Shown: one piece after another, positions 42,221 through 47,259 of the stretch | How the letters are laid out: the number at the start of each line of letters is the position of its first letter | Position numbering within the stretch: position 1 is the first letter of the stretch | Assembly (NCBI GenBank): GCA_963723235.1 | Contig: CAVRPV010000020.1 | Location: 19,250 to 83,249, forward strand | From: an uncultured delta proteobacterium | Lineage (GTDB): Bacteria; Desulfobacterota; WTBG01; CAIYCZ01; CAIRTM01 | Reading direction: 5' to 3' | Length of the DNA stretch: 64,000 nt | Position numbers and translations under genes: made by a program | The notes under the pieces: generated by a model | Database searches by the model: none | The model's input: only the letters and a program-made list of their open reading frames with translations | What the model was told of the DNA's origin: nothing

Positions 42221-43159
42221 TCAATGCCCCGCAGGCGTTCGGGCGGCAAGCATCTGCCTGGCCCTGACCAGGTCGGCCAACATGCTGTTAACCGGCACGT
42301 CCACGCTCAGGGCAAGGGCCTCGCGCACGACAGCACCGTTCATATAATCAATTTCGGTTCTGCGCCCGGCGCGTATATCCTGCAGCATTGAACACAGGTT
42401 ATCCTGCGTTGCCCGGCACACGCTTTCAACGCGGGCAACCTGCTCATCAGGGTCAAAACTGATCCCTTTGGCAGCAGCGACCGCTACCCCCTCCTGAACC
42501 GCCTGGCGCATGATGCGCCGAATATGTTCGAGCTCCATGATACGCCCGTTGTTGATATTCAGAATTGCCGCCAGCGGATTTATGCCGATATTAACAAGCA
42601 GCTTGCCCCACAGCAGCGCCTGCATATCATCAACACGTCCGGTGCATATACCAGCCGATTCAAAAGCATTGAGAAGTTCAATAGCGCACGTGCGTTCCTG
42701 CGGCCGTAAAGGGGCTATCGCAGTCTCTCCGCAACCGGCATGCCGTACATGACCGGGGCCCAGCAATGTAGCGCCATGCGCGGTTGTGCCGGCCAGAACG
42801 GGCTGTTCGGGGAAATACTCCGCAAGAAACTCAACATTGCCGATACCGTTTTGCAGCGTAACAATAACCGTGTGCGGCCCGACACAACCAGCAGCGGAAA
42901 CTGCAGCCTGTGCAGTATCAAAAGCCTTTACAAAAAAAATCACATAATCGGCATAACCGATAGACGCGGCATTCCCTGTAATGGAAATACCGTCAACCGC
43001 ATGGGTACCGGTACTGTTTTCAAGCGTTATGCCATGGCGAATGATGGCCGCCACGGACGCATCATTCCTCGCAAGCAGGCATATATCCAGACCGGCCCGG
43101 CGCAACAGGGCCGCAAACAGGCATCCCATGGCCCCGGCGCCGACGAGTACGATTTTCAT
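42221..43159 (-). CDS. panE: 2-dehydropantoate 2-reductase
   Basis: VGAGAMG, VKAFD, LQNGIG, WGKLLVN and SMLQDIRAGRRTEIDYMNG. Confidence 0.95.
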   Translation of the reverse strand: MKIVLVGAGAMGCLFAALLRRAGLDICLLARNDASVAAIIRHGITLENSTGTHAVDGISITGNAASIGYADYVIFFVKAFDTAQAAVSAAGCVGPHTVIVTLQNGIGNVEFLAEYFPEQPVLAGTTAHGATLLGPGHVRHAGCGETAIAPLRPQERTCAIELLNAFESAGICTGRVDDMQALLWGKLLVNIGINPLAAILNINNGRIMELEHIRRIMRQAVQEGVAVAAAKGISFDPDEQVARVESVCRATQDNLCSMLQDIRAGRRTEIDYMNGAVVREALALSVDVPVNSMLADLVRARQMLAARTPAGH

Positions 43160-43472: not shown

Positions 43473-43760
43473 TTGGCAACCAAAAGTTCAAAACAGATGA
43501 CTGCTGTTTCCAAATTGCTGGACGGGCTCATAGCCGGCGGAAAACTTCAGGCATACACCCCTGAAACAAAGCCGCTCAAACCGGTCTGGGACAAACTGAT
43601 ATGTGCCCGTTGTGCGCTGTGTTATCTCTACTGCCCTGACGCGGCGATAAGCAGGCAGGCAGACGGTTATTTTGATGCTGATCAGGACCTGTGCAAAAGC
43701 TGCGGCATCTGCCACAGGGAATGCTGGTTTGGAGCCATCAGCATGCAGGAGGTGGAATAA
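43473..43760 (+). CDS. PorD-like (2-oxoacid:ferredoxin oxidoreductase delta-type) 2[4Fe-4S] ferredoxin
   Basis: RBS AGGAG and TTG start. KPVWD..CARCALCYLYCPD and CKSCGICHRECW. Confidence 0.9.
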   Translation: MATKSSKQMTAVSKLLDGLIAGGKLQAYTPETKPLKPVWDKLICARCALCYLYCPDAAISRQADGYFDADQDLCKSCGICHRECWFGAISMQEVE

Positions 43761-44473
43761 TGGATACCTACAGCCTTTTTGCAGGACAATTCCTGCCGTT
43801 TACAGAACGCTATCTTCCGGGCGGCCACAATGCCTGTGCAGGAAGCGGCACCGCACTTGCTCTGCGTCAGGTGTATAAGGCGCTTGAGGAAAAAAACGCT
43901 GATCTGGGAAAAGCACGCTGGGATGAAACACCGGCAGGCATATTCGCACAGCAGGAAATACCCGCTGCACCAGTCCTGATAATTCCCAAATCAGGCGAAA
44001 GCATCCTCTACATCTGTTTTGATGCTGAAGCGGCCCCTAAAAAAATCAACCCGGACCTCCTTGTCAAGAAAAACCCGGCCAAGGCCGCTGCCAGCGGTTG
44101 TGCGTATGCCGCCACCGCCAGTCCCAGCCACCCGTTTGACCTGATCGAAAAGGTACGCCGCGGATGGAATGCAGCCGGTTCGGCCTATATCCACATTCTA
44201 TGCCCCTGCCCGGCATCATGGGGCTTTGATGCTGAAAACACTGTCAGAATCGCCCGTATTGCTGTTGAGGCACGCGTATTTCCTCTGTATGAAATCGCTG
44301 AAGGCCATTACAACATTACCGTTGAGGACAAAGCTCCACGCACGGTCGCAGACTATGTCCGCAGGCAGGATCGTTTTTCAACATGGAAAAAAAATCAGGT
44401 TGCAGCGTTGCAGCAGCAGACCGACGGTGCGTATGCACAATTGAAGAACAACGCCGCGCACGAAATGAACTAA
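43760..44473 (+). CDS. Degenerate PorB-like protein lacking the TPP-binding motif
   Basis: TAATG overlap with the upstream gene. GHNACAGSG, YICFD, ATASPSHPFDLIEKV, HILCPCP..W and FPLYE, but no GDG or NxxYxNTG. Confidence 0.85.
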   Translation: MDTYSLFAGQFLPFTERYLPGGHNACAGSGTALALRQVYKALEEKNADLGKARWDETPAGIFAQQEIPAAPVLIIPKSGESILYICFDAEAAPKKINPDLLVKKNPAKAAASGCAYAATASPSHPFDLIEKVRRGWNAAGSAYIHILCPCPASWGFDAENTVRIARIAVEARVFPLYEIAEGHYNITVEDKAPRTVADYVRRQDRFSTWKKNQVAALQQQTDGAYAQLKNNAAHEMN

Positions 44474-44552: not shown

Positions 44553-45455
44553 ATGTCAGAGGTAACCTGGACGCCGGAAGGTGAAAAACTTTTTGAAAAG
44601 CTTCTCGCTGCTGTTCCGGAAGCAATGCGTGAGACTATCAAGCCAAAACTGATCCAGATGCTGGCACAGCGGGCAGGGTCCGCTGCGATAGATGAGGCCG
44701 TAATCAAAACCATGGTTCAGGAAGATCTCCCCGAACCCCAGAAAAGCGCGCTTATGATGGCCATCGGCATGCAGCCGCCACCGCCGCCACCGCAGGAAGG
44801 CCCCGCGCTTGAATGGAGCGGTAAAAGTGAAATCATGTTTGAGCTGATGCTGGGTGAGGTTCCCGAAGGCATGCGCGCAATCTTCCGCGGAAAGCTGAGC
44901 GCTGTTATAGCGCAAAAAACCCAGGGCGGCCCGGTTGTCGAGGAGCATGTCAACGCAGTGGTTAATGAAATCGTGCCCGAACCGTTCAAAAGCAACATTC
45001 TTAAAAAATTCAAAACACTGGGCGATTTTGATCCGGCCATAATAGGCGTCATTGTCGCGCGCTTCGGAACGTCCCGTGACAAGTTGATGTTCATCATGCA
45101 TGCTGTTCAGGATGAAATCGGGTATCTTCCCCGCGAGGCCATGCTTGCAATCAGCGACAAAACCGGCATCCCGGTCAGCGCAATCTACAGTGTTGCCAGC
45201 TTCTACAAGGCCTTCCGCATGGAAAAACCCGGAACGCATCATGTCAAGCTCTGTTGCGGAACAGCCTGCCACATTCACGACACGGCGAGCACCGGTGCTG
45301 CGATCGAAAACAAAATCGCCGCCAGCACCGGCGTTTCAATCGAAAAAACGCTGTGTCTTGGCTGCTGCGACTGCGCACCGGTTGTTGAGATTGACGGCAA
45401 AGTGTATAAAGGCGCCGAGGCCCAGGCAAAAATCGACTCCATAACGCTTGGATAA
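44553..45455 (+). CDS. NuoE/HydC-like [2Fe-2S] subunit with a tandemly duplicated N-terminal helical domain
   Basis: QDEIGYLP, VASFY, CCGTAC and CLGCCDCAP. Two N-terminal W..E....F...L..VPE.MR repeats are joined by QPPPPPPQ. Confidence 0.9.
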   Translation: MSEVTWTPEGEKLFEKLLAAVPEAMRETIKPKLIQMLAQRAGSAAIDEAVIKTMVQEDLPEPQKSALMMAIGMQPPPPPPQEGPALEWSGKSEIMFELMLGEVPEGMRAIFRGKLSAVIAQKTQGGPVVEEHVNAVVNEIVPEPFKSNILKKFKTLGDFDPAIIGVIVARFGTSRDKLMFIMHAVQDEIGYLPREAMLAISDKTGIPVSAIYSVASFYKAFRMEKPGTHHVKLCCGTACHIHDTASTGAAIENKIAASTGVSIEKTLCLGCCDCAPVVEIDGKVYKGAEAQAKIDSITLG

Positions 45456-45491: not shown

Positions 45492-47186
45492 ATGAAGCTT
45501 ACATGTGCAGAAGACCTTTCCAAATTAAAAAAACAGGGCAATACGCGCCTGTTCAGCGGCAAAATTCGCGTTAATGTCGGAACATCCACCTGCTGCCTGG
45601 CAAAGGGCGCAGAGCTGACCTACAATGCGCTTGCCTACGGTATGAAATCCCGGAACATCGACGCCGAACTGGTGAAAGTCGGCTGTAACGGCATGTGCTG
45701 GGCTGAACCCGTTGTAGAGATTCACCAGCCCGGAAAAGCCAAAATCATCTATGGCAAGGTAACGGAAAATGAAGTCCCGCGCCTGTTGGATGCGCTTGCA
45801 TCCGGCGACGTCATCGCAGACCTGGCCATCGCCCGCATAGACACTGAAGACCATGTTCTGGTCGGCAGCATTGACTATGCCACGGACGGCACCGCCCTTA
45901 CAGGCAAACACATTGCAAAACTCGAAGAAACCGACTTTGGAAAGCTGCAGCACAAGGTCATCCTGCGCAATGCCGGAGCCATTGATCCTGAAAATATTGA
46001 TGAATACATCGCCCGCGGCGGCTACGCTGCGCTTGCAACGGCCCTGGGCATGAAGCCTGCAAAAATTGTGCAGGAAGTCATTGACTCCGGCCTGCGCGGA
46101 CGCGGAGGCGCAGGTTTTCCCGCCGGCATCAAATGGCGCATGTGCCGTGAAGCTGCCGGAGACGTGAAATATCTCATCTGCAACGTCAGTGAAGGCGAGC
46201 CCGGCATCGGCATGCACCGCAGCTTTCTTGAATCAGACCCGCATGCGGTTGTGGAAGGCCTTATAATCGGCGGCTTTGCAATCGGCGCGCAGACGGCCTA
46301 CATGTACGTAAGAGACAACTACCGGGTTGCCCTGCAGCGCATTACAAAAGCCGTGCAGGATGCTACTGAATCCGGACTGCTCGGAGAGAACATTCTCGGC
46401 TCCGGGTACTCCATGAATATTATCGTCAAAGAAGGCGGCGGCCGCTATGTCTGCGGTGAAGAAACCGCGCTGCTCTCCTGCATTGAAGGCAAACTCGGCG
46501 AACCGCGCCAGCGTCCGCCCTTCCCCACCAACAGCGGCCTGTTCGGTAAGCCGACCTGTATCAACAATGTTGAAACCTGGGCAAATATCCCGGTCATCAT
46601 TCAAAAAGGCAGTTCCTGGTTCAGCGCCATCGGCTCAGAAAAAAGCAAGGGGACAAAAGTTCTGTCCCTGGCCGGTAATATCAGCAGGGCCGGTATGATC
46701 GAAGTTGCCATGGGCACGAAGATCAGCCAGATCATCAAGGTCATCGGCGGCGGTATCCCCGGAGGCAAAAAGCTCAAAGGCATACAGCCCGGCGGGCCCT
46801 CAGGCGGTGTGCTGCCTGCCTCCATGGACAAGCTCACTATCGACTACGATGAGTTGGCCGGAGCAGGTTCAATGCTCGGCTCGGGCGGCATGGTCATCAT
46901 GGATGACAGCAACGACATGGTTAAACTTGCCCGCTATTTTACAGACTTTTTTGTCAACGAGTCCTGCGGCAAATGCGTCCCCTGCCGTGAAGGTGTCTGC
47001 CGCGTGCGCGACATGCTTGATGAACTTATCAGCGGCCGGGCCGACAAGTCTATGCTGAAAACCTTTACTGCCATGGCGGATCCGATCACCAAGGCCTGCG
47101 CCTGCGCGCTGGGCAAAACCGCCATGGTGCCGGTAACATCAACCATGAAACATTTCCGCCACGATTACGACGCCTATTTGCAATAG
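45492..47186 (+). CDS. NuoF/HydB-like FMN/NADH-binding flavoprotein with an N-terminal thioredoxin-like [2Fe-2S] domain
   Basis: TCC..VGCNGMC, GLRGRGGAGFP, EGEPG, CGEETAL, NNVET, GGPSGG and ESCGKCVPC...CALG. Confidence 0.93.
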   Translation: MKLTCAEDLSKLKKQGNTRLFSGKIRVNVGTSTCCLAKGAELTYNALAYGMKSRNIDAELVKVGCNGMCWAEPVVEIHQPGKAKIIYGKVTENEVPRLLDALASGDVIADLAIARIDTEDHVLVGSIDYATDGTALTGKHIAKLEETDFGKLQHKVILRNAGAIDPENIDEYIARGGYAALATALGMKPAKIVQEVIDSGLRGRGGAGFPAGIKWRMCREAAGDVKYLICNVSEGEPGIGMHRSFLESDPHAVVEGLIIGGFAIGAQTAYMYVRDNYRVALQRITKAVQDATESGLLGENILGSGYSMNIIVKEGGGRYVCGEETALLSCIEGKLGEPRQRPPFPTNSGLFGKPTCINNVETWANIPVIIQKGSSWFSAIGSEKSKGTKVLSLAGNISRAGMIEVAMGTKISQIIKVIGGGIPGGKKLKGIQPGGPSGGVLPASMDKLTIDYDELAGAGSMLGSGGMVIMDDSNDMVKLARYFTDFFVNESCGKCVPCREGVCRVRDMLDELISGRADKSMLKTFTAMADPITKACACALGKTAMVPVTSTMKHFRHDYDAYLQ

Positions 47187-47217: not shown

Positions 47218-47259
47218 AAAAAAAGGTTTTCCGCACGCATACTGCGGGAAACCTTTTTT
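47218..47259 (+). terminator. Intrinsic terminator closing the redox operon
   Basis: AAAAAGGTTTTCCGCA-loop-TGCGGGAAACCTTTTTT. Confidence 0.88.

Follow-up and report, generated by a model that had tools for sequence, protein, structure and literature searches.

A short PorB descendant without a thiamine diphosphate site is the constant partner of a NuoE/NuoF-type module in a lineage of uncultured Thermodesulfobacteriota

In this study, we analysed a window of 64,000 nucleotides (nt) from contig CAVRPV010000020.1 of an uncultured delta proteobacterium and examined in it a gene, here called porB′, that encodes a short relative of PorB, the beta subunit of 2-oxoacid:ferredoxin oxidoreductases (OFORs). 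The gene is the second of four that lie on the same strand in the order porD′-porB′-nuoE′-nuoF′; lengths of the products are given in amino acids (aa).

43473..43760, plus strand: porD′, a porD-like gene for a 95-aa ferredoxin with two 4Fe-4S motifs and eight cysteines (TIGR02179, Pfam Fer4)
43760..44473, plus strand: porB′, short PorB-like, 237 aa (a 237-codon open reading frame without stops; OFOR beta-subunit fold)
44553..45455, plus strand: nuoE′, a nuoE-like gene, 300 aa (PF01257, E = 2e-30)
45492..47186, plus strand: nuoF′, a nuoF-like gene, 564 aa (PF01512, PF10589, PF01257, PF10531)

The stop codon of porD′ and the ATG of porB′ have one base in common (TAATG), and a GGAGG stands just upstream; of 60 related loci, 38 likewise show a 1-nt porD/porB overlap. 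As the start of porB′ we favour 43760 over an upstream GTG at 43691 because homologues open with MD(T/K)(Y/F) and because of this overlap and the GGAGG just 5′ of the ATG.

The translation of porB′ contains GHNACAGSG, LYICFDAEAAPKK, AATASPSHPFDLIEKV, HILCPCPASW and FPLYE, and the protein has kept the N-terminal GHxAC stretch and the C-terminal half of the PorB family, while being ~70 residues shorter than the PorB norm. Alignment with canonical PorBs revealed that the first of the cluster cysteines (Cys1) is retained as C26 and that Cys2 has become Ser29, the CxxC motif now reading CAGS. The 'ATGC' strand with Cys3 is deleted, as are, in frame, the GDG loop and the helix that follows it, and 'DNEAYMNTGIQRS...' (canonical DNEAYMNTG) is shortened to DAEAAPKK, the loop 'AYMNTGIQRS...' being gone. 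Cys4 is retained as C150, with an additional cysteine (C148) two residues earlier. GDG, NTG and Cys3 are deleted in all members of the clade of short PorBs to which PorB′ belongs; CAGS is particular to the window's own subclade, and most of the short clade retains CxGC. An earlier note on this DNA had described a PorB homologue of 237 aa with an in-frame loss of the thiamine site (CxxC changed to CAGS, the TGC cysteine and GDG gone, NEAYMNTG changed to AEAAPKK, an extra cysteine in CPCP), and the open frame, all the motifs quoted and the alignments bear this description out. The same is true of its remark that the PorD-like protein upstream lacks TGxWR but keeps its eight cysteines: in alignment with canonical PorD, PorD′ retains all eight, in two CxxCxxCxxxC motifs, and TGxWR is replaced by (P/E)GxKP (PETKP in our feature list for the window). 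PorD′ passes the TIGR02179 (PorD_KorD) model with 67.5 bits against a cut-off of 60.05 and misses the cut-off of the archaeal PorD equivalog (68 versus 120).

Family models and the predicted structure give a consistent picture. PorB′ has no match to PF02775 (Pfam TPP_enzyme_C), and among 24 short-clade members just two reach E = 0.22 for this family, the remaining Pfam output being sub-threshold noise with no usable family. The NCBIfam models for PorB, VorB and the oxalate oxidoreductase beta subunit match residues ~105–231 only, with ~125 bits against cut-offs of 405–590; for NF008819 (pyruvate synthase subunit beta), the score is 125.1 bits over residues 105–230, short of the cut-off of 405. 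As a control, the PorB of a Por-Bfu locus (L068) passes NF008819 with 416.6 bits. Por-Bfu is a predicted pyruvate oxidoreductase fused to the bifurcating BfuABC core, found mainly in Dehalococcoidia (Schut et al. 2022, PMC9304861). The AlphaFold model of PorB′ (mean predicted local distance difference test score, pLDDT, 82.6; predicted template modelling score, pTM, 0.83) has as its best Foldseek matches in the PDB 5exd_I, 9bt4_C and 5c4i_C (E 5e-11 to 1e-10, TMq 0.56–0.67), that is, the beta subunits of oxalate oxidoreductase (5c4i/5exd) and of the pyruvate:ferredoxin oxidoreductase (PFOR) of Methanosarcina (M. acetivorans; 9bt4_C). A profile search of the PDB sequences with PorB′ returned oxalate oxidoreductase beta and PFOR beta again, over the C-terminal half. 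The first 17 residues are strongly conserved yet modelled with low confidence, which suggests that they may serve as an interface peptide.

Of the features that define an OFOR beta subunit, then, PorB′ has the fold alone; the thiamine motif, the set of four cysteines, a PorA partner and a score above the cut-off of the hidden Markov models are all missing. On its sequence, PorB′ cannot be a normal thiamine diphosphate-binding PorB. The genome does hold several PorA-type genes elsewhere, with which PorB′ might still work as a thiamine-dependent beta subunit, but we consider this highly improbable: both thiamine loops (GDG and NTG) are gone and PF02775 gives no match, these PorA genes are on different contigs from the operon (and at least the one on contig C7 has a PorB-like match of its own ~2 kb downstream), and neither PorA nor PorG is encoded in the window operon or at any of about 60 short-clade loci.

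The short form of PorB is not peculiar to this window. A search of 5.8 billion proteins found 70 relatives of PorB′ down to 40% identity, nearly all of them 237–259 aa long, and when 1.84 billion representatives were searched with a profile, about ten full-length clusters scored 220–378 bits, followed by a steep drop to 181 bits or less, where PorBs of ~300 aa aligned over their C-terminal half only. In a tree of 158 PorB-type sequences, more than 110 distinct short sequences (225–265 aa) formed one clade, with a support of 98 in the Shimodaira–Hasegawa-like approximate likelihood ratio test (SH-aLRT). The ratio of nonsynonymous to synonymous substitution rates (dN/dS) of porB′ was 0.07–0.14 in pairwise comparisons (0.086 for a pair at dS 0.17); it was alike in the N and C halves of the gene, the degenerate N half giving ~0.09, and the neighbouring nuoE gave 0.084. 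Whole-genome searches found porB′ in all 21 species genomes from the order of the window, in 33 of 42 from its class, and in none of the 387 genomes that were sampled from the phylum's other classes. The carriers are all metagenome-assembled, are labelled Thermodesulfobacteriota or 'delta proteobacterium', and come from freshwater, sediment and soil. Contigs of four metatranscriptome runs match the operon at 95–99% identity, one of them spanning the porD′-porB′ junction; this is modest evidence of expression, DNA carry-over being possible.

That a gene below the family's normal length and with motifs missing could be a decaying pseudogene or an assembly artefact can practically be dismissed, as more than 100 independent assemblies share the short architecture without internal stops, dN/dS is 0.086 at dS 0.17, and porB′ is universal in the order and present in metatranscriptomes. 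The short PorB is a conserved, lineage-specific family. The earlier note had named a conserved short clade under purifying selection as the thing to look for, and a one-off decaying copy with no similarly truncated homologues as what would speak against it; what we found is a monophyletic short clade with the support, dN/dS values and presence throughout the order given above.

The genomic context of this family proved as stable as its sequence. At every related locus with enough sequence, the genes stand in the order D-B-E-F (PorD-like, short PorB, NuoE-like, NuoF-like). Type I clusters, to which the window operon belongs, consist of D-B-E-F only, usually with a divergent panE gene; type II clusters have in addition a 311-aa subunit resembling the N-terminal part of NuoG, and type III clusters have the type II set plus a flavoprotein of the geranylgeranyl-reductase family. 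BfuA (NuoG N-terminal-like) is absent from the window operon and all type I loci and present in types II–V. Two or three cluster types occur together in many genomes. Types I, II and III are each monophyletic in the PorB tree (SH-aLRT 99, 100 and 99), and types I–V each form their own clade in the NuoF tree (100), so the genes of each type apparently stayed together, with no shuffling between types. The main point that we add to the earlier note is that PorB′ has a NuoE/NuoF-type module as its constant partner: it is a pseudoenzyme-type derivative of PorB in the service of that module. A porB′-nuoE′ gap of 79 nt, compared with the 1-nt overlap of porD′ and porB′, might suggest that PorD′ and PorB′ are an independent ferredoxin-like pair sharing no more than a transcript with NuoEF; given that the D-B-E-F order is invariant across paralogous types only ~40% identical, and that the PorB and NuoF trees split the same types, we regard this as very unlikely.

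The two partner proteins have features of their own. NuoE′ carries a thioredoxin-like [2Fe-2S] domain at residues 167–291, preceded by two helical repeats of ~75 aa that are joined by a proline run (44553–45050; W-T/S-P-E/D-G...VPE.MR...LPEPQKS), for which only a weak match to DUF2621 was found. The same repeat architecture occurs in related loci, including those of types II and III, and a single repeat of this kind is fused to the N terminus of NuoF′ in L054 and in a second copy of the cluster on contig C6 of the window's own genome. NuoF′ comprises an N-terminal thioredoxin-like 2Fe-2S domain, a flavin mononucleotide (FMN)/NADH domain, an SLBB domain and a 4Fe-4S domain, and scores 474 bits against TIGR01959, under the cut-off of 558. 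Pfam detected no C-terminal two-cluster ferredoxin (Fer4) domain in NuoF′, whose NADH_4Fe-4S domain ends at residue 561 of 564. The domain is likewise missing from the NuoF′ proteins of types I–III, while the BfuB of types IV and V has one (in the 623-aa BfuB of L070, Fer4 lies at residues 569–621). The nucleotide-binding loop reads YLICNVSEGEPGIGMHRSF in the NuoF′ of types I–III and YIICNADEGDPGAYMDRSI in type IV and V BfuB, GAGA having become GGGR in the NuoF′ of the window; the cofactor or nucleotide preference of NuoF′ may differ from that of BfuB.

Whether PorB′ still holds a metal was approached through the cysteines of 116 distinct short-clade sequences, with 63 GDG-bearing (canonical) PorB rows for comparison.

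Cys1 (C26): kept in 114 of 116 short-clade sequences
Cys2: a cysteine in about 80% of the short clade
Cys3: deleted in all short-clade sequences
Cys4 (C150): kept in 115 of 116 short-clade sequences
Extra cysteine at position −2 of Cys4 (LCPCP): about 86% of the short clade, versus 4 of 63 GDG-bearing rows

Among the GDG-bearing rows, Cys1 is present in 59, Cys2 in 59, Cys3 in 57 and Cys4 in 62. The near-invariance of Cys1 and Cys4 in the short clade argues for a metal centre having been retained in the family. Of the four cluster-ligating cysteines (CxxC, a third ~25 residues on, and PCP), however, the PorB′ of the window has Cys1 and Cys4 only. Within its subclade, taken as the sequences with ≥75% identity, the Cys2 position holds Ser or Asn throughout and Ala replaces the former Mg-ligand Asn; C114, C148 and C150 are invariant, and C26 is kept in nearly all members. 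The re-ligated cluster put forward in the earlier note fits the clade as a whole, in which Cys1, Cys2 and Cys4 are kept and the extra cysteine is found in about 86%, but it is doubtful for the protein of the window, which has lost Cys2: judging by these residues, a metal centre or cluster in the window's own PorB′ has slightly less than even odds, and its likelihood is higher in the clade members with CxGC. We also considered the extra cysteine of LCPCP as proof of re-ligation and rejected it, as type II and long type IV proteins do without it and have three cysteines only, and one canonical archaeal PorB carries it along with Cys3.

Two other views of PorB′ turn on these residues. The first is that, at least in the window's subclade, it is a pure scaffold without any metal that only positions PorD′ and perhaps the NuoE repeats. 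Such a scaffold would account for the Ser or Asn at Cys2, the Ala at the Mg-ligand position, the two subclade members without Cys1, and P0064, which lacks both Cys2 and Cys4; yet C26, C148 and C150 persist in nearly all members of that subclade, C114 is always Cys, and the ~99% conservation of Cys1 and Cys4 across the clade is hard to explain without a metal site, so that we hold this view to be rather unlikely. The second is that PorB′ has been neofunctionalised, its remodelled pocket binding a new cofactor or a third substrate and thus being an active site and not an accessory. The operon offers no other candidate for a catalytic subunit, the degenerate N half is constrained like the C half (dN/dS ~0.09), and the invariant polar residues of PorB′ (E16, R36, K40, D88, E90, K103, D127, K131, E178, Y199, Q203 and R205) include D88 and E90 of the former Mg-binding strand, which do not vary in any of the 116 short-clade sequences. 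Nearly all of these residues are conserved in canonical PorBs too, however, which gives them the look of an inherited fold or interface; about 70 residues of the old pocket are gone, and no family model points to another cofactor. A new active site is thus a distinctly unlikely outcome.

Taking these results together, we propose that PorB′ is a thiamine-free, non-decarboxylating descendant of PorB that acts as an accessory subunit and, with PorD′, forms an Fe-S or docking module on a NuoE/NuoF-type flavin module, a reading to which we assign a probability of roughly 0.65. Its components of complex formation, an electron-transfer role, ferredoxin as the partner and a retained metal centre are what we infer. 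The non-catalytic role that the earlier note assigned to PorB′ would agree with the lost motifs and the missing PorA and PorG. In the proposed mechanism, D-B-E-F would be a soluble redox complex of four subunits carrying electrons between NAD(P)H and a partner of low potential, which is most likely ferredoxin. PorB′ has lost all the elements that bind thiamine diphosphate or PorA and has retained the part of the fold with the proximal-cluster site, a part that, by analogy with PFOR structures, contacts PorD. PorD′ would be held by PorB′ as domain V of PFOR is held by domain VI, giving a chain of two or three clusters, and this chain would dock on the NuoE′F′ flavoprotein and connect NAD(P)H/FMN to a carrier of low potential, for example ferredoxin. 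The C-terminal clusters B3 and B4 of BfuB are presumed to deliver electrons to ferredoxin in Bfu enzymes (PMC12318220); because types I–III lack this B3/B4 domain, PorD′ may provide its function in trans. In the type I complex, a partner encoded elsewhere could drive the uphill transfer from NADH to ferredoxin.

Several points weigh against this proposal. The physical linkage of the four proteins is read from gene context. Electron transfer from NADH to ferredoxin alone is uphill, and there is no obvious third-substrate subunit in the operon. NuoF′ lacks the C-terminal B3/B4 domain that is thought to serve ferredoxin in Bfu, and its nucleotide loop reads NVSEGEPGIGMHR as against NADEGDPGAYMDR in BfuB. 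The loss of Cys2 throughout the window's subclade, and of Cys1 as well in two of its members, makes a role of the window's PorB′ as an electron wire doubtful. The position of the Por-Bfu PorBs as the sister group is poorly resolved, only the split of the thiamine-less superclade described below being supported (91), and the best long matches in the profile search are the thiamine-less type IV-like proteins P0081 and P0084, followed by a canonical-motif PorB of uncharacterised context. A bolder version of the proposal, which we think unlikely, is that PorD′ and PorB′ are a new Fe-S adaptor standing in for both BfuA and the ferredoxin domain at the C terminus of BfuB, so that four subunits would make up a minimal flavin-based NAD(P)H:ferredoxin oxidoreductase, working either alone (possibly bifurcating with a further partner) or as the missing NADH-input module of the lineage's NuoEFG-less complex I.

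The trees also bear on where the module came from. The short clade, a small clade of ~283-aa proteins and the type IV proteins together form a thiamine-less superclade (SH-aLRT 91). The type IV PorB-like proteins (287–319 aa) have IDR or LDR in place of GDG and have lost NTG and Cys3, with their length kept; their genes stand in the order flavoprotein, D, B, BfuC, BfuB, BfuA, flavoprotein, with no PorA or PorG. Two such clusters, L070:4275–11687 and L087, come from Thermodesulfobacteriota metagenome-assembled genomes and encode PorBs of 309–319 aa in which GDG is IDR. Among the loci drawn from genomes, the best GDG-bearing relatives belong to the Dehalococcoidia arrangement PorG-PorD-PorA-PorB-BfuC-BfuB-BfuA, ahead of archaeal and other PorBs, and the N-terminal motif M(D/E)K(F/Y)xVY is common to the Por-Bfu PorBs and the short clade, the one generic PorB aligned with them, P0087, being without it. 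By these sequence comparisons, a Por-Bfu-like enzyme that lost PorA, PorG and its cofactor site may have been the ancestor of the module, with type IV possibly standing midway between Por-Bfu and the short clade. The data are consistent with a series from Por-Bfu to type IV, with PorA, PorG and the cofactor site lost, and on to types I–III, with the dead loops deleted; we infer this order of events.

GDG-less PorB relatives also occur outside this group. In an unrelated lineage (L099:2847–5762, GCA_043799385.1), a 253-aa PorB-like protein, P0163, lacks GDG and NTG and has all four cysteines; its reduced cluster reads PorG (150 aa)-PorD-PorA (343 aa)-HTH (helix-turn-helix)-PorB. More GDG-less groups are present in the representative set, for example P0156, P0213 and P0090. 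Because L099 and these further groups exist, the thiamine motif has probably been lost more than once among PorB relatives.

Two further features flank the operon of the window.

42221..43159, minus strand: a divergent gene of the panE/apbA family, ketopantoate reductase-like (PF02558, PF08546)
47220..47259, plus strand: a hairpin and T run (AAAAAGGTTTTCCGCA...TGCGGGAAACCTTTTTT) that closes the operon, read by eye

A TTGACA-17-TACTGT upstream of porD′ was likewise read by eye, and an automatic promoter and terminator scan listed neither this nor the hairpin downstream of nuoF′. A PanE homologue, so labelled by blastp, lies on the minus strand beside the operon or a few genes from it in about 14 listed type I loci, and was confirmed by Pfam ApbA in L006 only. 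Its surroundings are housekeeping genes, with rnpA, yidC and mnmE upstream and, in many loci, a sigma-70 gene downstream. We considered panE as a part of the system and rejected it, its frequency in type I, its absence from types II–IV and its housekeeping context pointing to synteny.

Elsewhere in the window's own genome, a paralogous type III cluster lies on the minus strand at C6:285400–291580, with a short porB 44% identical to that of the window; its order is porD-like, short porB, nuoE-like, nuoF-like with an extra N-terminal repeat, a gene for a 311-aa NuoG N-terminal-like protein, and a flavoprotein gene of the geranylgeranyl-reductase family. At C19:66663–70829, nuoA-B-C-D runs straight into nuoH-I, nuoE, nuoF and nuoG being absent from the D–H junction. 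A search of this genome, which is 83% complete, gave no RnfD homologue. The PorA-type match at C7:23054–23717 extends over two frames and has two in-frame TGA codons in one piece, which could reflect selenocysteine or a disrupted gene, and a canonical BfuC-BfuB-BfuA set lies near it at C7:14926–17878. Searches with tblastn found at least 10 paralogues of the aldehyde:ferredoxin oxidoreductase family (tungsten/molybdenum pterin) on C1, C2, C6, C10, C11, C13, C15 and C19. A gene of the same family adjoins the D-B-E-F-G cluster of the type II locus L009.

OFORs and NuoEF/Bfu modules are central in anaerobic energy metabolism, and the module described here is a clear natural example of a catalytic subunit turned into a pseudoenzyme or electron-transfer adaptor: a subunit of a thiamine enzyme has been stripped of its cofactor site and yet retained, invariably paired with a flavin/Fe-S module. 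Within a single uncultured class of Thermodesulfobacteriota, one often met in freshwater sediments, at least three paralogous cluster types have arisen from it, and its presence in all 21 genomes of the order points to an NAD(P)H-linked redox reaction at the core of the lineage. It extends the catalogue of Bfu-like architectures beyond the 2022 survey, and it gives a way to test which PorB segments are required for the cluster and for PorD binding as opposed to catalysis.

Compared with PorB and other OFOR beta subunits, PorB′ has a homologous fold (Foldseek E ~5e-11) and a C-terminal half that aligns strongly (131 bits to 5c4i_C). Like them it has, at the N terminus, the (E)xFxPGHxAC stretch, as well as the ICxDxE strand and the PCP cysteine, and its PorD partner is translationally coupled. 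It differs in being ~70 residues shorter, in the deletion of the GDG and NTG thiamine diphosphate/Mg loops and of Cys3, in the loss of Cys2 in the window's subclade, in having no PorA or PorG partner and in failing both the NCBIfam equivalog cut-off and PF02775. In the literature searched, whose coverage is incomplete, no description of a thiamine-less PorB or of a D-B-E-F operon was found and only Por-Bfu surfaced; a 2026 review of PFOR diversity does not mention a truncated or thiamine-less PorB.

Non-bifurcating NuoEF-type modules are known from the NADH-dependent [FeFe] hydrogenases of S. wolfei and of anaerobic fungi (PMC13556243). Like these, the window operon combines a NuoF-type subunit that has no ferredoxin-reducing branch with a NuoE partner; their catalytic partner, however, is a hydrogenase, whereas the window has only the thiamine-less PorB′ and PorD′, and NuoF′ keeps its N-terminal 2Fe-2S domain. 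With the type IV clusters (L070, L087, P0081) the operon shares the superclade, the loss of GDG, NTG and Cys3, the position of the PorB gene between porD-like and nuoE/nuoF-like genes, and the lack of PorA and PorG. The type IV PorBs, in contrast, are about 290–320 aa long because their loops are replaced and not deleted, and the clusters hold a NuoG-like subunit, a full BfuB with the ferredoxin domain and two flavoproteins of the geranylgeranyl-reductase family.

The relation to the Bfu family (BfuABC; PMC9304861, PMC12318220) is one of resemblance. The window operon has a NuoE-like BfuC adjacent to the BfuB counterpart, but it is no member of the family as this is defined, because BfuA and the C-terminal Fer4 domain of BfuB are lacking. 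Nor does it belong to Por-Bfu, as it has only D- and B-like genes, the latter without the thiamine site. Even so, the closest known systems are Por-Bfu and the type 4 Bfu enzymes, which are without BfuA. In type 4 enzymes such as Rub-Bfu, unrelated subunits are proposed to feed electrons directly to the core (PMC9304861). The window operon likewise has a NuoE/NuoF-type core without a NuoG-like BfuA; the type 4 BfuB retains the Bfu cofactor set including the C-terminal domain, whereas NuoF′ lacks that domain and the extra subunits are derived from PorD and PorB. Por-Bfu, for its part, has four subunits of the pyruvate oxidoreductase (G, D, A and B), an intact thiamine site, BfuA and the C-terminal two-cluster domain of BfuB, none of which the window operon has in full, and the two share PorD and PorB genes directly upstream of the nuoE-like (BfuC) and nuoF-like (BfuB) genes as well as the MxKFxVY motif of PorB.

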